Notes: generated from the sequence alone by a model not told the origin. Shown: positions 8,057 through 53,072, counted from the stretch's first letter. The stretch is DNA of 62,196 bases from Candidatus Levybacteria bacterium RIFCSPLOWO2_12_FULL_39_17 (GCA_001782675.1 MFPJ01000035.1:1-62196); one strand, 5' to 3'. Program-made: numbers and translations.

Positions 8057-10024
<1,968 letters not shown>

Positions 10025-10057
10025 TTAGCAGAAAAAGACAATCGAATTCAACACCTA

Positions 10058-10155
10058 GAAGTGTGAAATGTGAAGTTAGAAGCTGGATTTATAAGGTGGG
10101 AAGTGTGATAATCCCACATCACACTTCATTGTCAAGCTTCACACTTCCAACTTCT
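10058..10155. repeat. compound inverted repeat built from GAAGTGT-type heptamers
   Basis: Direct heptamers gaagtgt/gaaatgt/gaagtta/gaagctg at 10058-10085. Perfect 10-bp hairpin gaagtgtgat(aatcccac)atcacacttc at 10100-10127. Complementary cacttc-type units at 10139-10155. Confidence 0.6.
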
Positions 10156-10163
10156 CATCTCTA

Positions 10164-11363
10164 TTATTGTATTTGTGATATAAGACTATAAATCGGAGTG
10201 ATAACGGACAAAATAAGGAAAGCAACAGACACACCCAGGACAATTATCAAAATCGGCTCAATGGCCGTAGTCAAAGTACTCACCTTAACATCCAAATCCC
10301 TTTCAAAATATTCCGAAATTTTAAGCAAACTTTCATCTATTCTACCGGTTGACTCTCCGACTCGAACCATTTGAACCAACATCGGAGGAAACATTTTTGC
10401 ATGCGCAAGGGCGTCTGAGAGTGAAACACCCTTTTCCACCAGGGAGCTTGTTGACACAATGGATTTTTTATACCAATAATTATTTGCAACATTTGAAGTT
10501 ATATTAAGACTCTCTATAATGGAGGCTCCCGAATTAATAAGAAGAGATAGAGTTCTTGTTATTTCATCCAATATGGATAAATTGATTATGCTTCCCAAGA
10601 CAGGAAGATTCAGCTTCATTTTGTCCAGAGCACGAATACCGGGATCTGTTTTTTTGAACCGGTTAAATCCTATAAAAGAAAAAATTAACAAAACTAATGC
10701 TGCCGGCCAAAATGTAGTAAATAATTTCGATATTCCAAGTACGATTTTAGTGCTGCCCGGCAGCTCAAGGTTTAAATTTTCATATAAACTTCCAAGCTGG
10801 GGAATAACAAAAATGTTCATAACCGCAATAACAATAACAACGCCGGAAATTACAATTGCCGGATAAAACATTGCGCCTTTTACTCTTTTTCTTAAGTCCT
10901 CCGATTTCTCCATGTTATCGGCGAGACGGACCAGGACCTTGTCAAGAAGTCCTCCTTTCTCAGCAGCTCTGATTAATGCTATGTAAACATCGGAAAAAAC
11001 ATCCTTATGTTGGCCCAATGTATCCGAGAGAGAGGTTCCTTCGGAAATCTGAGCAATAAGATCATTTACCAATACCTGCATGCTCGGTTTGTTTCTCTGT
11101 TGTTTTAGTATGTTCAGGGATTCAATCAGGGTTAATCCGGTTAGTATCATTGAGGAGAGCTGCCGTGTAAAAAGGACAATATCCGAGTTGTTTACTCGAC
11201 CAAATTGAAGGAAAGTAGTAGCTCTTCTTTCGACCTTTCTAATAGAAAGAGGGGTAATATTGCCGGAGCGCAAAAACTCAACAACCTCCTTTTCATTATT
11301 TGCTTCAAGTCTGCCCTTTTGCTTAAGCGAATCCTTGTCAATTCCCGTATAAATAAATTCCAT
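10164..11363 (-). CDS. pilC: type IV pilus platform protein (GspF/PilC family)
   Basis: 399 aa with two GspF-type repeats and three TM segments. Adjacent to the pilT and pilB ATPases. Confidence 0.9.
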   Translation of the reverse strand: MEFIYTGIDKDSLKQKGRLEANNEKEVVEFLRSGNITPLSIRKVERRATTFLQFGRVNNSDIVLFTRQLSSMILTGLTLIESLNILKQQRNKPSMQVLVNDLIAQISEGTSLSDTLGQHKDVFSDVYIALIRAAEKGGLLDKVLVRLADNMEKSEDLRKRVKGAMFYPAIVISGVVIVIAVMNIFVIPQLGSLYENLNLELPGSTKIVLGISKLFTTFWPAALVLLIFSFIGFNRFKKTDPGIRALDKMKLNLPVLGSIINLSILDEITRTLSLLINSGASIIESLNITSNVANNYWYKKSIVSTSSLVEKGVSLSDALAHAKMFPPMLVQMVRVGESTGRIDESLLKISEYFERDLDVKVSTLTTAIEPILIIVLGVSVAFLILSVITPIYSLISQIQ

Positions 11364-12562: not shown

Positions 12563-14320
12563 CTATTCCTGTGCTACTCTAAGAATTTCATCGATTGTTG
12601 AAATTCCCCCTAAAACCTTAAGATATCCGTCCTGCTTCATGGTTATCATCCCCTCTGCTTTGGCCTGTTTTTCGATTGTAGACGCATCGGATTTTGTCAA
12701 AATTAAACCGGCAAGTGTTTGGGTAACCGGCAAAACCTCAAATATTCCGACTCTTCCGGAATAGCCCGAGTGCCCGCAGTAATCACATCCCTCTCCTTTA
12801 TAAAGCAAAATTTCCTCATTTTTGATGGTTATTAGATTTCCAAGAACTTTCCCAAGCTCCCCAACCAGTTCTTTAGCGGGTTTATATTGCTTTTTACAGT
12901 GGGTACATATTTTCCTGGCAATTCGCTGCCCTAGTATGGCATTCATAGTTGAAGCGAGCAGAAAATTTTCCGCCCCCATATCCAATAAACGAGGAAGCGC
13001 GCCTGAGGCGCTTGATGTATGAAGTGTTGAAAACACCAGATGGCCGGTCAACGAGGCTTGAATTGCCAACTCGGTAGTTTCTTTATCCCGAATCTCTCCG
13101 ACAAGGATAATATTGGGATCCTGTCTTAAAAAAGAACGAAGTCCTGTAGCAAATGTCAATCCGACATCAGGATTAATCTGGACTTGATTAGAGCCATGTA
13201 TTTGGTATTCTACAGGATCCTCAAGCGTTAATATATTTACGCGAGTTGTATTTAACTTAGATAAAACCGAATAAAGAGTTGTGGTTTTTCCGGATCCTGT
13301 GGGTCCGCAAACAATTATTATCCCGTGCGGGCGAAGTATGGATACTTCCAAATTTTTTAATGCGGTCCCGCCTAGTCCAAGTTCAGGTAAGGTGGGTACT
13401 CCGCCCGACTTCTTAAGAAGACGCATGACTATTTTTTCTCCAAAAATTACGGGAAGAGAACTTACGCGAAGGTCCACCTCTTCATCTCCAAACTTAAAGT
13501 TAAATCTTCCATCCTGCGGTATCCTGTGTTCGTCAATTTTCATATCCGATAAAATCTTAATTCTTGATATGACAGCATCTTTTACGGGCAGCGGAAGAGA
13601 AAGTCTTTCATATAGTATGCCGTCAATTCTATACCTTACCCTGACTCTGTCTTCCTGAGGCTCCAAATGAACATCCGAGGCTTTACTTTTAACGGCATAT
13701 TCAAGAATAGTCGACACTATTTTGGCAATTGGCGCTTCTTTTATGACCTGAGACAAGCTTTCTTTATCAAAGGTTTTAACTCCTGTCATTTCCTCTGTCT
13801 CTTTTAAAGCTGCCTTTACTTCACCAACCAACCCAAATGTATATTGGTTTTGGATCGCATTTTTAATTTCTCCGGGGATCCCCTGAAAAGAAGCAATATT
13901 CGCGTTTGTTTTCTGTTTAACAAAATTGACTGTTTCAAGATCAAGAGGGTCGGACATTGCCAAAGATAATATGTTCCTTTCCTTATCGAAGGAAAAAGGA
14001 ATCACTTTGTATTTTTCGGCAACTCCTTTTGGGACAAAACTTAATGCTTCAGGAGAAAAAGGAAGTGTCGCGACCGAAACGAAGGGAATTCCGATAAGCT
14101 TGGCCCGCGCCTCATAATAATCATCTTCTTTTACCAATTTTGAATCAAGTAATACCTTGTCTATTGGCTCACCTTTATTTAGAGAATCTGATTTGAGCAG
14201 GTTGTATTGGTCAAGGATTATTTTTTTTTCTTGGAGTAAAATTCCGGTGATATTATTCCCAACATTTAAAGGAGCGGAAGTGGTTGTTGCGGAATTATTA
14301 TTAGGCAGCTGTTCATCCAT
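12563..14320 (-). CDS. pilB: type IV pilus assembly ATPase (GspE/PilB family)
   Basis: 585 aa. Has an N-terminal GspII_E-like domain, Walker A GPTGSGKTT, and a tetra-Cys cluster (CTHC ... CDYC). Confidence 0.9.
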   Translation of the reverse strand: MDEQLPNNNSATTTSAPLNVGNNITGILLQEKKIILDQYNLLKSDSLNKGEPIDKVLLDSKLVKEDDYYEARAKLIGIPFVSVATLPFSPEALSFVPKGVAEKYKVIPFSFDKERNILSLAMSDPLDLETVNFVKQKTNANIASFQGIPGEIKNAIQNQYTFGLVGEVKAALKETEEMTGVKTFDKESLSQVIKEAPIAKIVSTILEYAVKSKASDVHLEPQEDRVRVRYRIDGILYERLSLPLPVKDAVISRIKILSDMKIDEHRIPQDGRFNFKFGDEEVDLRVSSLPVIFGEKIVMRLLKKSGGVPTLPELGLGGTALKNLEVSILRPHGIIIVCGPTGSGKTTTLYSVLSKLNTTRVNILTLEDPVEYQIHGSNQVQINPDVGLTFATGLRSFLRQDPNIILVGEIRDKETTELAIQASLTGHLVFSTLHTSSASGALPRLLDMGAENFLLASTMNAILGQRIARKICTHCKKQYKPAKELVGELGKVLGNLITIKNEEILLYKGEGCDYCGHSGYSGRVGIFEVLPVTQTLAGLILTKSDASTIEKQAKAEGMITMKQDGYLKVLGGISTIDEILRVAQE

Positions 14321-46743: not shown

Positions 46744-46854
46744 TCAAAGACTACTGTAATTCTACTCTACTCCGGTTTTTTTCGGACATATTTTTCGATT
46801 AAGATTTTGAGCTTGCCTAACCATTCAAATCCTCTCCTCGGTACAGTTCGCAAA

Positions 46855-47802
46855 CTATAATTTGCTCGGAGTTAAAGTGGCCTCAATATCTTTAAGTTCG
46901 ATTCGAGATTTGTAGAAGAAATAACCTACTGTTCCAAAGGCAATAATTGGAGAAACGTAGGGAGGGATGCGATATCCAAAGCTATCTAGAATCATTATAA
47001 TTCCCAAAAATAAAATCGAATACATTGCACCGTTTTTTAAATATTTATACTTCTTGATTCTCTCGATGTTTGAAACCGTTAGTTGTCTTAGAACAACTGC
47101 TCCAATGCCGTTTCCTATTAGAATTATTGGAACAGATAAGGTAAAAGCAAAAGCTCCAACTACGCCGTCTATTGAAAAAGTTGAATCTAAAACCTCAAGA
47201 TATGCGATCTTTGAGGCATCTGACATTCCGCCTGACATTAATCTTTTTTCTTGTTGTTCGGCATATTGTCTAAATCCGTGGATAATAAAGAACGCTGTAG
47301 AACCTAAAACCGCTCCGAATGCCATTATGGGATTTTCCTGAAGCGCGAACCAAACAATGACTGAGAGAAGAATCGAAACGATCGCGAAGAACCATGCTCC
47401 TTGCTCATTGAAAAATTTCTCACCTCGCAGTCCATAATTTTTGGTTTCAAGGAAAAGCCAGTTAAAGAAAAGAAACACCATAAAGATCCCTCCCCCAACA
47501 AGTAAAATCGGCGAAGATGCTTCTATTGCTTCATGAATTTTGGGGTCGCCTGAGAAGGTTGCAGTTAGTGCGCCGATGATCCCCAGAGATGGGTTTGAGG
47601 CAAAAACTATAAGAAGCGGGAGGAGTCCCCTAACTATAAAAACCGCAAGCAGAATTCCCCAGAAGAGGAAAAATCGGCGGGCTTTTTTACCCATTGTTGA
47701 AAGAACCTCTGCATTGATAACAGCATTATCGATCGAGGTGATGATCTCAAAAAGTGTAAGCCCGAGGATTGTTAAAATAATAAATCCAAGCTCCATAAAC
47801 AT
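46855..47802 (-). CDS. TerC/DUF475-like integral membrane protein
   Basis: 315-aa polytopic protein. EIITSIDNAVINA is the family-typical SxDN motif. Confidence 0.65.
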   Translation of the reverse strand: MFMELGFIILTILGLTLFEIITSIDNAVINAEVLSTMGKKARRFFLFWGILLAVFIVRGLLPLLIVFASNPSLGIIGALTATFSGDPKIHEAIEASSPILLVGGGIFMVFLFFNWLFLETKNYGLRGEKFFNEQGAWFFAIVSILLSVIVWFALQENPIMAFGAVLGSTAFFIIHGFRQYAEQQEKRLMSGGMSDASKIAYLEVLDSTFSIDGVVGAFAFTLSVPIILIGNGIGAVVLRQLTVSNIERIKKYKYLKNGAMYSILFLGIIMILDSFGYRIPPYVSPIIAFGTVGYFFYKSRIELKDIEATLTPSKL

Positions 47803-47867
47803 TAATTATATATCAAACCCACCAAGGATTGTAATATGGCTGAATTCTGGTAAAATATATTCGGTTT

Positions 47868-47949
47868 GGGCTTGTGCTGAAATTGGTATACAGGCATGCT
47901 TGAGGTGCATGTGCCGCAAGGCGTGGAGGTTCGAGTCCTCTCAAGCCCA
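47868..47949 (+). tRNA. tRNA-Leu (anticodon GAG)
   Basis: 82-nt class II tRNA. Acceptor GGGCTTG/CAAGCCC, anticodon stem-loop catgc-TTGAGGT-gcatg, G37, A73, 13-nt variable arm. Confidence 0.85.
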
Positions 47950-47957
47950 CACCTCAT

Positions 47958-49525
<1,568 letters not shown>

Positions 49526-49607: not shown

Positions 49608-49712
49608 CGGCTGCTTTCTCCGATTTTCAAAAAGGGCTTTGATACGCTCTTTTCGGAATTTGTCCCCCATGCAAATTCCGCAATTCCGCCTTCAAAATTC
49701 CTGAGTGTGGAC
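49608..49712. repeat. IR-A right arm (105 bp, perfect)
   Basis: Reverse complement of 48026-48130. Overlaps the IR-B left arm by the 7-bp core tgtggac (49706-49712). Confidence 0.95.
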
Positions 49713-49787
49713 ATTTACGAAAAAATCCGAACTCAATTCAAAAAAGAAAATTCTTAAACTAATTCGCTCGGGCTTCGCCCTCGCTCT
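49706..49787. repeat. IR-B left arm (82 bp, perfect)
   Basis: Exact reverse complement of 52895-52976. Confidence 0.95.
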
Positions 49788-49991
49788 CAAAAACTGTCGG
49801 CTCGTCTCAGATTTATCTGAAGAAAGCGCAAAAATTTTGTTAAAGAACTTTTAACCTAAAATGGCGCAACCGGTAGGCTCAGTTGGGATTGTGTTCCAAA
49901 ACTGTCCGATTGCGCCATTAAAAAACACAATCCGCCAAAACTGAGTCCGTTTTTAATTTATAGGAAAATCGTACACAAATCAAGCCATACG

Positions 49992-50990
49992 TTAACAATT
50001 GATCCAATAGAGGTTCTTAATTCTTTTTGCTAGGTTAAAAGAATTTGCATGCGACACATATCCCAAGTAAGATTGTAAAGCCTGATAATCACTGCCTTGC
50101 ATAAGCTTCTTCAATATTCTCCTCTTAGTACTAGTCCTGGGCAAAGTGTAATGGGGTAAAACAATGTATCCGCAAAAATCAATTCCCCATGAAAGTTTTC
50201 TTGCTGAGGTTTTCTTTGGGTGTAATTCAAGTTTTAAATTCTCTTCCAGGAATTCATTGACAGCGATAAGGTAATCTTCGTGCTGTTTGGTGTTTACACT
50301 TAAGATCAAGAAATCGTCGGCATAACGAAGATAGTGTTTCATTTTTAATCTATGTTTAACAAACTGGTCTAACTCGTTTAAGTATACATTTGAAAATATC
50401 TGGCTGGTTAAATTACCAAGTGGAATTCCACGACCAGATCCTCTCTCAGAACTAAAGCTATCTATTACATTATTGATAAGCCAGTTAATTTCCTCATCCT
50501 TGACCTTTCTTGAAATAAGCTCCTTTAAAATACTGTGATCAACTGAGGCAAAGAACTTTTTAATATCGCATTTCAAAGACCAACACTCACCCGTATAGTT
50601 GAGGCTTACAGCTCTTGTCATTTTCTTAAGCCTTTTGACAGCTTTGTGCGTTCCCTTACTCTTCCGACAAGAATACGAATCGTAAATAAAGTGTTTATCA
50701 AACAATTCGTATAGATATTTGTAGAGAAGATGGTGCAGGACACGGTCGCGAACGTTTGATTTATGGATATGGCGTCTTTTAGGATCTGTTACGTAAAATT
50801 CTTGATATGTACCGTGTTTATATGTTTTCTTGTTTAATTCTTCATATAAACTAAATAGGTTATCTTCCAAATGTCTTTCAAATTTTTGCACGTCCTTTTT
50901 ATTTCTTTTTTCCTTTTTAAACTCGTCCCATGCGTGAAATAGGTTTTCAATTGTTATAATATCTCGATACTTTAATTCTTCTGCCTTCAT
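49992..50990 (-). CDS. DGR-type reverse transcriptase
   Basis: 332 aa. YADD box (LRYADDFLIL) and RGIPLGNLTSQIFSNVYLNELD (DGR-typical LGxxxSQ). Lies next to a TR/VR pair. Confidence 0.9.
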   Translation of the reverse strand: MKAEELKYRDIITIENLFHAWDEFKKEKRNKKDVQKFERHLEDNLFSLYEELNKKTYKHGTYQEFYVTDPKRRHIHKSNVRDRVLHHLLYKYLYELFDKHFIYDSYSCRKSKGTHKAVKRLKKMTRAVSLNYTGECWSLKCDIKKFFASVDHSILKELISRKVKDEEINWLINNVIDSFSSERGSGRGIPLGNLTSQIFSNVYLNELDQFVKHRLKMKHYLRYADDFLILSVNTKQHEDYLIAVNEFLEENLKLELHPKKTSARKLSWGIDFCGYIVLPHYTLPRTSTKRRILKKLMQGSDYQALQSYLGYVSHANSFNLAKRIKNLYWINC

Positions 50991-51040
50991 AAATTTTTCA
51001 AACTATATATGCAGACTGGCAAAAATATACACAAAGACGC

Positions 51041-51064
51041 AGAGAGAGAGAGAGAGAGAGAGAG
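51041..51064. repeat. (AG)12 microsatellite
   Basis: agagag... x12, followed by tgtgagagtgag. Lies in the divergent RT/Avd spacer. Confidence 0.9.
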
Positions 51065-51097
51065 TGTGAGAGTGAGTATAAACTACCCCTAAATGAT

Positions 51098-51454
51098 ATT
51101 CCGATTTTCATTAAGCTTTATGATTTTTACAAAAATTTAACACCTGTTATTACTGCTTTTCCTAAAACGAAGCGCTACACTTTGGGGCAGAAATTGGACA
51201 ATATAACTCTTGATATTCTCGAATTATTGTTTTCTGTACCCGCGTCTAAGGACAAGGTCGACATACTTCAGCAAATAAGTACAAAAATTGACCTTATTAA
51301 AGTCTTACTACGACTTGCAAAAGACAGTCAGGCAATACAAAACAACAAATATTTAGGACTTGAATCAATTTTACAAGAAATAGGCAGGATGCTTGGGAGA
51401 TGGATAAGATCAACCAAGCAAAATAGTGGGCAGGGGCAGGATAAGCTTCTTTAA
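51098..51454 (+). CDS. avd: DGR accessory variability determinant (Avd, four-helix-bundle family)
   Basis: The C-terminus LQEIGRMLGRWIRSTKQNSGQG parallels Bordetella phage bAvd (EVGRILGSWIARVNRKGQAG). The track ORF starts at TTG 51182, but the homologous N-terminus IPIFIKLYDFYKNLTPVITAFPKTKRYTLG lies in frame upstream with no ATG/GTG/TTG, so the 5' limit is uncertain. Confidence 0.7.
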   Translation: MPIFIKLYDFYKNLTPVITAFPKTKRYTLGQKLDNITLDILELLFSVPASKDKVDILQQISTKIDLIKVLLRLAKDSQAIQNNKYLGLESILQEIGRMLGRWIRSTKQNSGQGQDKLL

Positions 51455-51464
51455 CCTCACCAGA

Positions 51465-51579
51465 TACTTCCATGCGGAGAACACCTATGTTCTGATTGCC
51501 GTTGTCGCGATTCCAGTTATTCACGTTCACCCCGTTGTCGGGCTTAGCATTACCAACGTTGGCGACATTCGAGCCAGTG
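51465..51579 (-). repeat. DGR template repeat (TR)
   Basis: 115-bp match to 51882-51996. In the VR frame it encodes TGSNVANVGNAKPDNGVNVNNWNRDNGNQNIGVLRMEV, rich in AAY Asn codons. Confidence 0.9.
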
Positions 51580-51851
51580 CTTCCGCGAGTAATTCTCCGT
51601 AATATATAATTCTCACTATAGTTTGATTGCTCTTACTACTGTATTTTATTCGTCCCAAGGACAAAAGAGAAAAACTCGTAGTGTCTAGTAAGCTTACTTT
51701 AAGTACGCTTTTGACAATTACTTGTCAAAACTCTGACTTTTGAAAGTTCTAGAAATAGGCGAAGAATAAAACGTGTTTATGCTTTCACTGCCTAATGAGG
51801 GTATTTTACAAAAAAAATTTCGGAAAAACCAAGAGGAAAAATCCAAAAGAA

Positions 51852-51881
51852 CCAAAAAACCAATTACTTAGTCTCAATTGG
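51852..51881 (-). terminator. hairpin + T-run at the target-gene stop (terminator and/or DGR target-recognition hairpin)
   Basis: Minus strand reads CCAATT-gagactaagt-AATTGG then TTTTTT. The stop codon sits in the loop, immediately 3' of VR. Confidence 0.5.
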
Positions 51882-52679
51882 CACTACCATGCGGAGAACA
51901 CCTATGTCCCGACGGCCGCTGCCGCGACCCCAGTGATCCACGAACACCCCGTAGCCGGGCCCAGCATCACCAACGTAGGCGACATCCGAGCCAGTGGAAT
52001 TTGTAGGATTTTTAGTTCTTGTATATACATAGTTTAGGCCTTGAGCTGCTGCATATTCGGATCCAAGTAACCACTGTCCTGTTGCTTCTTCGTGCTGAAA
52101 GACTATATCTGTAACGGTAGATGCTTCGCCGGGAATTATTTGTCCTAATCCTTCTTGTCCTAGTCTTTGTCTTAATTCAACTGCATCAACAGCCACAGCC
52201 TTATCTTGTCCCTCTACACCTTTACTGAAACTGTCAGGCACAAAAGCTCTTTCTGGAGCGGGATATATAGCTATTTCAACCTTTCGTGAAGGAACGGCTA
52301 CTAATCTGTTTTCACTTGTGGTTAGGTACGCAAAAGAAGGTTTCCCTTTTTTAGCACGGGAATCTTTTTGAGCTGTAATCGTTTCTCCAAGTGGAGTATA
52401 TATAAGTGCACCATCGGCAATTAAAGCCTCTCTTTCCACATCTGTGAAGCTTTCTCTAATAGTCAATTGTTCAATAACCGTTGGTGTTTCAAGAGGAACT
52501 GGCGCTGTAGGACTAGAAAAATGTTCAGGCATACCAAGTTTCCTTGCAATTTTGGCTCGTGCGCCATAGGATTTAGCGTCAGCGCTGAGTGTGTCTGCAA
52601 GATCAGGATAACCCTTCTGCTTGAATTGTTTGGCTAATTGATCGGCTTGTCGACGTAACTGGTCAAGTTCTGCTGCCAT
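51864..52679 (-). CDS. DGR target (variable) protein with C-terminal VR
   Basis: 271 aa. VR encodes TGSDVAYVGDAGPGYGVFVDHWGRGSGRRDIGVLRMVV at the extreme C-terminus. The ...W...G..R pattern is typical of CLec-fold DGR targets. Confidence 0.85.
   Translation of the reverse strand: MAAELDQLRRQADQLAKQFKQKGYPDLADTLSADAKSYGARAKIARKLGMPEHFSSPTAPVPLETPTVIEQLTIRESFTDVEREALIADGALIYTPLGETITAQKDSRAKKGKPSFAYLTTSENRLVAVPSRKVEIAIYPAPERAFVPDSFSKGVEGQDKAVAVDAVELRQRLGQEGLGQIIPGEASTVTDIVFQHEEATGQWLLGSEYAAAQGLNYVYTRTKNPTNSTGSDVAYVGDAGPGYGVFVDHWGRGSGRRDIGVLRMVVPIETK
51882..51996 (-). repeat. DGR variable repeat (VR)
   Basis: Differs from TR at 20 positions. All are T in TR on the plus strand, i.e. A on the coding strand. 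No other mismatches. Confidence 0.9.
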
Positions 52680-52688
52680 AATCCGAGC

Positions 52689-52717
52689 ATTTTATACTAA
52701 CTATAGGGCGTTGTCAA
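52689..52717 (-). promoter_or_regulatory. sigma-70-like promoter of the DGR target gene
   Basis: Minus strand: TTGACA, 17-nt spacer, TAAAAT. The ATG at 52679 is 9 nt downstream of the -10 box. Confidence 0.5.
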
Positions 52718-52894
52718 GATCCCGCCTGTTTTTTTAATCTTAAACATTTTGCTATAACTTTCCCTTTAAAATTTGTTAAAATACAAGGGAGTAAAATATA
52801 TTGTCCGCGTACGGGAAGGGTTGGGACAAGGACAATTAAAATAAATTTCCTTGCTCGTACGATAGTAACGAGAAAATCGCGCGCAAAAATACCT

Positions 52895-52976
52895 AGAGCG
52901 AGGGCGAAGCCCGAGCGAATTAGTTTAAGAATTTTCTTTTTTGAATTGAGTTCGGATTTTTTCGTAAATGTCCACA
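52895..52976. repeat. IR-B right arm (82 bp, perfect)
   Basis: Reverse complement of 49706-49787. Ends in the core gtccaca. Confidence 0.95.
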
Positions 52977-52996: not shown

Positions 52997-53069
52997 GCCT
53001 AGATTGCCAATGTGGTCAAGGCGCCAGTCTGAAGAACTGGTTATGCGGGTTCGATTCCTGCTCTAGGCA
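52997..53069 (+). tRNA. tRNA-Phe (anticodon GAA)
   Basis: 73 nt. Acceptor GCCTAGA/TCTAGGC, anticodon stem-loop ccagt-CTGAAGA-actgg, T-loop TTCGATT. The D-arm is atypical. Confidence 0.75.
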
Positions 53070-53072
53070 CAT

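Follow-up and report, generated by a model that had tools for sequence, protein, structure and literature searches.

Does the retroelement carried by this genome fragment of Candidatus Levybacteria, a bacterium of the Rifle aquifer, still rewrite its own target gene, and if it does not, what holds it back? The 62,196-nt stretch that was analysed (hereafter the window) contains at 49992–52679 a reverse transcriptase (RT) gene, an avd gene, a template repeat (TR), a variable repeat (VR) and a target gene, an arrangement that an earlier note on this DNA had described as a complete diversity-generating retroelement (DGR) which has mutated its own target. Our analysis showed that at least one retrohoming event has occurred. 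Taken as a whole, we consider it very probable that the locus is a DGR of the B3 architecture known from the candidate phyla radiation (CPR), that it retrohomed in the past and is now not diversifying, and that a simple-sequence tract ahead of avd is a likely, although unproven, switch for Avd.

The evidence for past rewriting of the target comes from the two repeats, which could be aligned at an offset of 417 nt with no gap in 115 nt (51465–51579 against 51882–51996). They differed at 21 positions, each of them a T in the TR on the plus strand, i.e. an adenine on the coding strand, and read on that strand the VR carried G at 14 of these positions, T at five and C at two. Adenines make up 34 of the 115 nt of the TR, and the probability that 21 mismatches placed at random would all fall on A is 1.8e-14. 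All 20 mismatch positions claimed in the earlier note were correct, but 51465 had been missed; its further statement that every mismatch lies at a TR adenine was upheld on re-alignment (21/21), with no non-adenine difference. The continuous homology is solid for 51466–51579, and the mismatches at 51465 (T versus C) and 51469 are the last two, at the fraying 3′ end of the repeat. Ordinary divergence is excluded because the differences are adenine-specific, and the VR, differing from the TR only at TR adenines, shows that retrohoming has taken place at least once. As for coding capacity, 31 of the 34 TR adenines occupy codon position 1 or 2, 11 codons are AAY, and the codons changed between TR and VR comprise 16 non-synonymous and one synonymous change. 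The VR terminates seven codons ahead of the stop of the 271-aa open reading frame (ORF), and up to about 18 C-terminal codons of the target could be recoded from the TR. The translations previously quoted for both repeats were exact. No further copy of the TR and no other VR was found within the 62-kb window.

Both repeats are closed by the same G+C-rich 16-mer, GGTGTTCTCCGCATGG, in the VR and at 51470–51485 in the TR, and the flanks of the two repeats diverge only beyond it. This shared stretch had been noticed before and compared to an IMH (initiation of mutagenic homing) element, a role that we infer by likeness to the Bordetella phage DGR (PMC5758913). The hairpin and T-run reported to follow the VR do exist, but the stem is weak: it consists of six A/T-rich pairs with a 10-nt loop (−4.8 kcal/mol), its stability is not above that of shuffled sequences (z = −0.96), and a terminator scan did not pick up the hairpin or its T-run. 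We therefore rejected it as a functional hairpin or terminator. Inverted repeats after the VR are present in only 34% of DGRs (Wu et al., PMC5758913), and thus the missing G+C-rich inverted repeat does not exclude membership of the DGRs. A protein assembled by PLASS (P0003; SRC SRR3990167_2732688) was observed to join the 5′ part of the VR to the 3′ part of the TR and then to run on into sequence downstream of the TR, its residues being a mosaic of VR-like and TR-like ones. It is probably a chimera of the two repeats, or alternatively a VR/TR recombinant or a retrohoming intermediate.

The RT gave a consistent picture. The protein matched Pfam RVT_1 (6e-26), and its best solved relative was 8ub7_A, the bRT of the Bordetella phage DGR, over residues 10–332 with an E-value of 1.5e-39; structures of group II intron and retron-type RTs matched more weakly (about 1e-17), and the NCBIfam group II, retron and Drt models all scored far under their cut-offs. 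DGR RTs carry the signature [I/V/L]GxxxSQ in place of the QGxxxSP of group II and retroviral RTs (PMC7826257), and the LGNLTSQ of the window protein fits this signature. Both motifs named in the earlier note, YADD and LGNLTSQ, are thus present, and the assignment of the RT to the DGR clade rather than to retrons or group II introns was borne out. The accessory protein reached 85.8 bits against NCBIfam NF033474 (DivGenRetAVD; cut-off 80) and 7.5e-18 against Pfam bAvd. With adenine-only differences, an RT of the DGR clade and a curated Avd match, the proposal of a DGR that has mutated its own target stands. An account in which an ordinary diverged 115-nt duplication lies beside an unrelated retron- or group II-type RT would have nothing in its favour beyond the weak hairpin and the unrecognised fold of the target; its prediction of mixed-base mismatches failed, all 21 differences falling on one base of one copy, and it is also opposed by an RT much nearer to bRT than to group II or retron-type enzymes, by the replacement of QGxxxSP with the DGR motif, by the low group II, retron and Drt scores and by the Avd match. 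We regard it as extremely improbable. By homology with the Bordetella phage system, the TR would be transcribed into RNA, an RT–Avd complex would copy this RNA into cDNA with misincorporation opposite adenines, and the mutated cDNA would replace the VR and so recode the C-terminus of the target.

Relatives of the RT were collected with one genome per species, which gave more than 559, most of them from Patescibacteria/CPR and the best with 64% identity. DGRs of these bacteria are said to have been first surveyed by Paul et al. in 2017. The order VR, TR, (avd), RT with adenine-specific mismatches is common to 53 related loci, and avd lies directly upstream of the RT gene on the opposite strand in 75 of the 76 related loci with an Avd. 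On the minus strand, the window likewise reads target/VR, a 302-nt spacer, TR, avd (opposite strand) and RT. On the RT strand the TR ends about 375–600 nt (mostly 390–470 nt) upstream of the RT in the 53 relatives and 475 nt upstream here, and the start-to-start offset between VR and TR is about 365–595 nt in relatives and 417 nt here. This is the B3 architecture, TR-(avd)-RT, of CPR DGRs (Wu et al. 2018, PMC5758913), and a cell-encoded DGR clade restricted to Patescibacteria has been described as ‘DGR clade 2’ (Roux et al. 2021, PMC8144416). The reversed avd, considered as a possible oddity, was dropped as such, being the published B3 arrangement and normal for the clade. We conclude that the element is a chromosomal DGR of this CPR/Patescibacteria-restricted clade, its identity as a DGR being virtually certain, and that it is an ordinary member of the known B3 group, new or possibly already catalogued. 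Related DGR cassettes were seen to adjoin genes of other mobile elements, namely type IV secretion system genes, an IS1595 transposase, an rve integrase and a relaxase.

We then compared the element among natural assemblies. The identical RT protein occurred on 45 contigs, from which ten assemblies (L001–L010) were fetched; all are Rifle aquifer metagenomes, and the comparison was made at the consensus level. Their 3.3-kb cassette was at least 99.3% identical to the window, and neither VR nor TR showed a single base difference across the ten. The exact target protein was present on 46 contigs. In the earlier note an invariant VR, with its differences from the TR explained by ordinary divergence, had been named as grounds for abandoning the DGR reading. 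The VR is indeed invariant across the ten assemblies, but the adenine specificity excludes ordinary divergence. As a control we used a DGR of Candidatus Beckwithbacteria, with an RT 69% identical to that of the window, for which two loci (L091 and L093) differed at 14 positions over 9 kb. All 14 differences were inside the VR, 13 of them at TR adenines. Thus a comparison of assemblies is able to detect an active DGR of this clade. The Beckwithbacteria element, whose avd carries an interrupted, in-frame (CA)-like tract, is apparently active; it was also noted that in L091–L093 (3060–3182) this DGR sits between conserved housekeeping genes, with EF-G and EF-Tu downstream. Two close relatives of the target protein (P0009 and P0010) carry different VRs on near-identical scaffolds, and diversification has therefore happened over a longer time scale. 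Homologues further removed from the target likewise vary chiefly in the VR columns.

A possible reason for the static VR emerged from the avd gene. The avd frame stays open as far back as 50993, with no ATG, GTG or TTG in it before TTG 51182, which lies 28 codons into the conserved Avd body. A short leader ORF opens at 51009, the only ATG between RT and avd, and passes through a (GA)n tract; in the window it does not share the frame of the Avd body. Losing one GA unit would fuse the two, and a peptide across leader, repeat and Avd would then read, for example, ...DAEREREREK/EREYKLPLNDIPIFIK. Thus the avd body cannot be translated from a canonical start codon because the (GA)n between ATG 51009 and Avd is in the wrong phase. 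The earlier note had listed an Avd homologue and called the DGR complete. The homologue passes the curated cut-off and all parts of the element are present, but the opposite strand and the lack of an in-frame canonical start before TTG 51182 had gone unmentioned, and with the avd body out of frame with the only upstream ATG completeness is doubtful.

Two other candidate starts were considered and rejected. ATT 51098, where the Avd profile begins, was set aside as the general solution: in relatives the equivalent codon is ATT in 13, ATA in ten and ATC in seven, with no preference for ATT, and most relatives have an ATG five codons upstream of it. No Shine–Dalgarno (SD)-like motif at a suitable distance from 51098 was found in the window. 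The out-of-frame ATG 51093, taken as a possible degraded start, arises from the Asn-Asp codons AAT GAT and is probably coincidental, the equivalent NTG triplets of relatives arising from Phe/Leu-Asp codons. The avd gene is not a pseudogene, because it is under strong purifying selection (dN/dS, the ratio of non-synonymous to synonymous substitution rates, is 0.035–0.08 for the avd body, measured against lineages that are saturated at synonymous sites). The start of the leader is also conserved in relatives, as MQTGKD (L098), MQTDKD (L094), MQSGKD (L114) and MDTNKD (L099), and the differences fall mostly at third codon positions, suggesting that the leader is translated. From the fixed VR and the missing canonical start of the avd body, we infer that the element is not diversifying in its sampled state.

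The tract between ATG 51009 and the Avd body was hypervariable. Across the ten otherwise at least 99.3% identical assemblies, the pure GA run ranged from 10 to 23 units, and besides three deletions every sequence difference among the ten loci fell in this tract. A natural deletion of 79 nt is present in L009 (JGI 3300025308; equivalent to window 51082–51160), and one of 108 nt in L004 (LBYJ01000002; equivalent to window 52770–52877), upstream of the promoter-like site of the target. ATG 51009 was in frame with Avd in one of the ten assemblies only, L001, whose tract is 2 nt shorter and gives a 147-aa Avd that was also predicted by the gene caller of that assembly. An in-frame GTG was present in L005, and no in-frame canonical avd start was found in the remaining eight. 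Simple-sequence tracts are rare in the window, which contains only two in its 62 kb, counting that of the avd leader. The other long homopolymer (2100–2108) is a G9 on the minus strand that forms codons 5–7 (Gly-Gly-Gly) of a folD-like gene (1287–2120; tetrahydrofolate dehydrogenase/cyclohydrolase, a housekeeping gene), and its place just after the start resembles that of a phase-variable tract.

Tracts at the same place recurred in related elements. Counting G/C runs of at least 8 nt or dinucleotide runs of at least six units between the Avd N-terminus and the RT start, we found tracts in 41 of 72 related loci; read in the avd sense, 36 of the 41 were poly-C (poly-G on the strand of the RT) and the others were dinucleotide tracts of (CA)n, (GA)n or (CT)n. 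Of the 58 tracts in 867 kb of related loci, 48 were within 130 nt upstream of the RT start, a region to which only about 1% of the sequence belongs. All 27 tract-free relatives possessed an in-frame ATG no more than 25 codons away, compared with 10 of the 45 tract-bearing ones, a proportion close to the one third expected of a randomly phased switch. A short leader ORF with its ATG 3–25 nt before the tract was likewise recurrent. The poly-G tract was rejected as a Shine–Dalgarno sequence of the RT, its distance to the RT ATG ranging inconsistently from 9 to 49 nt. In two related DGRs, (GA)10 (L054, 2534–2553) and (GA)13 (L077, 3780–3805) tracts were observed inside the RT coding regions.

Tract length also varied within three more lineages, delimited in each case by an identical RT protein. 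One of them contained (CA)8, (CA)11 and (CA)28, plus four contigs ending inside the tract, and another contained (CA)16 and (CA)18. The third contained C9 and C10, with three contigs each: the C9 form reads MPPPTDFTLDIPIF... into Avd, and the C10 form stops after nine codons. Many short contigs were seen to break exactly at the simple-sequence tract. The same tract lengths recurred in independent assemblies (L006 and L008; L094–L097), which argues against random noise of assembly.

We tentatively suggest that slipped-strand changes of the (GA)n tract switch Avd, and with it mutagenesis, on and off. In most cells of the population Avd would then not be made and the DGR would be idle; the loss of one GA unit, or the gain of two, would restore the frame and turn the DGR on, and slippage by a single unit would restore the 147-aa Avd, as in the natural L001 allele. 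Such a switch would lock a successful VR allele until the tract slipped again, with the Levybacteria population mostly off and its VR frozen. By extension, it is conceivable, again as a tentative suggestion short of an even chance, that a large part of the CPR DGR clade uses the avd 5′ tract, be it poly-C, (CA)n, (GA)n or (CT)n, for slipped-strand phase switching that keeps the mutator on in a minority of cells. The question matters for how DGRs are controlled in nature, since to mutate a functioning protein without restraint is costly. At least four natural lineages are polymorphic for the tract, and related elements have it concentrated at a single spot. A static VR went with the out-of-frame tract of the window, and a variable VR with the fixed in-frame tract of one relative, that of Beckwithbacteria.

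Several observations weigh against this interpretation, and two of them bear on the DGR more generally. Two relatives, L099 and L114, carry an extra in-frame ATG directly before the Avd body, one of them with an SD-like GGGAG, so that the tract of these loci is part of a leader ORF and need not belong to the avd coding sequence. Avd could use a non-canonical start, or its frame could be restored by transcriptional or translational slippage. Clonality of the population, or strong selection for a single VR, could account for the invariance of the VR at the consensus level, and sequencing and assembly are prone to error at dinucleotide and homopolymer tracts. In the C9/C10 lineage the VR was the same in both states of the presumed switch, and with no VR difference to relate to tract length, a link between switch state and VR was dropped for that lineage. 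Beyond the tract, the IMH-like segment is the same in TR and VR and the hairpin downstream is weak, and a CLec (C-type lectin) fold for the target was not confirmed by Foldseek searches of PDB and BFVD.

A rival account takes the tract for a neutral microsatellite, placed in the leader of avd or in a divergent promoter, and the DGR for a constitutively competent one, with Avd made from a non-canonical codon near 51098 or through transcriptional slippage and the VR kept constant by clonality or selection. It would agree with the ATG that L099 and L114 possess just before the Avd body, downstream of the tract, with a GGAGGA motif 7 nt ahead of an in-frame ATC in L017, with the identical VR of the C9 and C10 alleles and with the origin of all ten loci from one aquifer. 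Neutrality is hard to reconcile, however, with four different motifs at the same spot, 48 of the 58 tracts being within 130 nt of the RT, and with the recurrence of a leader ORF whose ATG lies 3–25 nt before the tract. The mixture of ATT, ATA and ATC at the conserved N-terminal codon indicates that this codon is not a start in the isoleucine group of relatives, no suitably spaced SD-like motif precedes 51098 in the window, and the VR of a related DGR found in that aquifer does differ from assembly to assembly. We therefore consider a neutral tract somewhat unlikely. The further idea of a decaying relic, a once active DGR that has lost its avd start for good and is drifting towards loss, would account for the missing in-frame canonical start in eight of ten assemblies, for the deletions in L009 (which takes out the Avd N-terminus) and L004 (upstream of the target) and for the VR fixed over ten assemblies and 46 contigs. 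It is improbable in view of an intact avd body ORF with a dN/dS of 0.035–0.08, an RT that is intact and identical on 45 contigs, an intact TR that retains all its adenines, the natural L001 allele with its restored 147-aa Avd and the same arrangement in many species. A phase switch acting through the tract is thus the explanation of the avd leader that we prefer, held tentatively as stated above. The features of the locus are collected in Table 1.

Table 1. Features of the DGR and its surroundings in the window, in order of position (counted from the first letter of the window)
Feature	Position	Strand	Remarks
Large serine recombinase gene	47990–49525	−	Domains: Resolvase, Recombinase, Zn-ribbon; 3′ end extends into tRNA-Val
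105-nt inverted repeat	48026–48130 / 49608–49712		Perfect; flanks the recombinase gene
82-nt inverted repeat, left arm	49706–49787		Perfect; flanks the DGR cassette
DGR reverse transcriptase gene	49992–50990	−	332 aa; YADD, LGNLTSQ, Arg equivalent to bRT R74
Leader ORF	51009–51092	+	MQTGKNIHKDAERERERESVRVSINYP and stop, 27 codons; from the only ATG between RT and avd, through the repeat tract
Simple-sequence tract	51041–51076	+	(AG)12 at 51041–51064, then imperfect tail TGTGAGAGTGAG
avd body	51098–51454	+	118 aa and stop; strand opposite to RT, TR and target
TR	51465–51579	−	Asn/AAY-rich, TGSNVANVGNAKPDNGVNVNNWNRDNGNQNIGVLRM; 10 nt past the avd stop, on the strand opposite to avd
VR–TR spacer	51580–51881	−	302 nt
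Stem-loop and T6 run	51854–51881	−	Spans the target stop; stem 51860–51865/51876–51881, run 51854–51859
DGR target gene	51864–52679	−	271 aa; CPR-specific family; from ORF, homologue alignment and AlphaFold2 (AF2) model
VR	51882–51996	−	Codes for the target's final variable stretch, TGSDVAYVGDAGPGYGVFVDHWGRGSGRRDIGVLRM
IMH-like G+C-rich end of VR	51887–51902	−	GGTGTTCTCCGCATGG (coding strand); identical to TR 51470–51485
Promoter-like site	52689–52717	−	TTGACA-17-TAAAAT; within the invertible segment, a short way upstream of the target ATG
82-nt inverted repeat, right arm	52895–52976		Ends in the 7-nt core GTCCACA; 20 nt before tRNA-Phe

The target belongs to a family with 22 homologues besides the window protein. 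An alignment of the 23 members showed a conserved scaffold (...VYGRTKNPTNSxGSxVAxVGxAxPDxGVxVxxWxRDxGxxxVGAxRxVVPIE) in which the C-terminal columns are hypervariable exactly at the Asn codons of the TR. No Pfam or PDB sequence match was obtained for the protein, and nothing was found either when all 23 members were searched against Pfam or when a profile was run against the sequences in PDB. The AF2 model had a mean predicted local distance difference test score (pLDDT) of 88.6 over the full length, and for residues 70–271 a pLDDT of 87.8 and a predicted template-modelling score (pTM) of 0.86; it predicts an N-terminal helical hairpin followed by a compact α/β domain at residues about 70–271. 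Foldseek searches of PDB and BFVD with the full-length and domain models gave no match at E ≤ 0.001, the full-length search being dominated by the helical hairpin. Among the weak PDB matches of the domain model, eight of the top 16 were C-type lectin or formylglycine-generating enzyme (FGE)-like proteins (Mincle with an E-value of 0.28, PorK, SenA, pFGE and MCL), and the predicted order of elements in the domain, β-α-α-β-β-β-β, is compatible with a CLec fold. The CLec fold suggested beforehand for the C-terminus therefore agrees with the model in its order of elements but remains unconfirmed in the absence of a Foldseek match at that threshold. The promoter-like site ahead of the gene agrees with the consensus at 11 of 12 positions and is a consensus match only.

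The DGR lies on a 4.95-kb insert between tRNA-Val (47958–48031) and tRNA-Phe (52997–53070), which it shares with a large serine recombinase gene. A 7-nt core, GTCCACA, forms the 3′ end of tRNA-Val, occurs where the two repeats meet and makes up the last 7 nt before the tRNA-Phe flank, and the three core sites read like attL, an inverted attP and attR. The repeats of this islet are inverted, not direct. In one of the ten assemblies, L003 (ERZ27254759 k141_656074), positions 8097–11203 correspond to window 49788–52894 but are inverted with respect to both flanks and the recombinase gene, the rest being collinear. Both orientations of the cassette thus exist in nature, as an inversion polymorphism across the 82-nt repeats. 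The arrangement of the islet is not an assembly artefact, because it recurs in independent assemblies, including some made at k = 141, a k-mer longer than the repeats. No expression switch is evident from the inversion, since the promoter-like site of the target (52689–52717) lies inside the inverted segment, and the inversion may simply be a consequence of the long inverted repeats.

The predicted empty site, in which the tRNA-Val core is joined to the tRNA-Phe flank, had no exact match in JGI metagenome contigs, and no circular junction of the islet was recovered. A search of the window with Rfam returned tRNAs only. In L001, the islet and right flank were 99.8–100% identical to the window, and the left flank (12966–14137, against window 46800–48025) showed 94% identity in the tRNA region and 76% in the TerC gene, which suggests recombination or transfer with a breakpoint at the left edge of the islet. 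The clusters of the neighbouring proteins include named members from the Candidatus Levybacteria bins GW2011_GWA2_40_16, GWB1_39_7 and GWA1_39_11.

The element can be set beside several known systems. Its core anatomy does not differ from that of the CPR B3 DGRs, with the same gene order and strands, the same host group and a cellular rather than phage location, and most targets of those elements also lack a recognisable domain (PMC5758913), as here. The papers on them (PMC5758913 and PMC8144416) make no mention of an avd 5′ tract, a cassette inversion or a serine-recombinase islet. With the prototype, the mtd-avd-TR-brt DGR of Bordetella phage BPP-1, the present element shares homology over the full length of the RT, the [I/V/L]GxxxSQ and YxDD motifs and R74, an Avd homologue, an adenine-specific TR-to-VR transfer that alters the 3′ end of the target gene and a G+C-rich repeat end. 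It differs from BPP-1 in that avd is on the opposite strand and divergent from the RT gene, so that the RNA 3′ of the TR is antisense avd instead of a dedicated spacer; TR and VR have the same IMH-like 16-mer, no G+C-rich cruciform follows the VR, the element is chromosomal and not phage-borne, and the target is not Mtd-like.

Invertible segments of the Hin/Gin/Cin type are stretches of DNA flanked by inverted repeats. Like them, the islet has perfect inverted repeats beside a serine recombinase gene and occurs in both orientations in nature, but its recombinase is a large serine recombinase rather than a small invertase, its arms of 82 and 105 nt could be inverted equally well by homologous recombination, and its target promoter-like site lies inside the segment, leaving no expression switch evident. 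As in tRNA-targeted islands of large serine recombinases, the 7-nt core is shared with the 3′ end of a tRNA gene, here tRNA-Val.

For the avd tract, the closest parallel is with the contingency loci of Neisseria, Haemophilus and Campylobacter, which undergo slipped-strand phase variation (e.g. PMC3315296 and PMC4965091). Our literature searches on simple-sequence or phase-variation control of DGRs listed no paper that describes a switch by an avd tract, and simple-sequence control of a DGR is likewise absent from the passages checked in a Bacteroides DGR preprint and in PMC10053308. If the switch proposed here is true, CPR bacteria combine two devices of evolvability, a stochastic switch and a targeted mutator. 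In contingency loci as here, a homopolymer or dinucleotide tract lies just after a start codon, and its length is polymorphic among otherwise identical sequences and toggles the reading frame. The present locus differs from them in that in some CPR relatives the tract may lie in a leader ORF rather than in the avd coding sequence, and in that the gated gene encodes an accessory factor of targeted mutagenesis instead of a surface antigen or a restriction enzyme.

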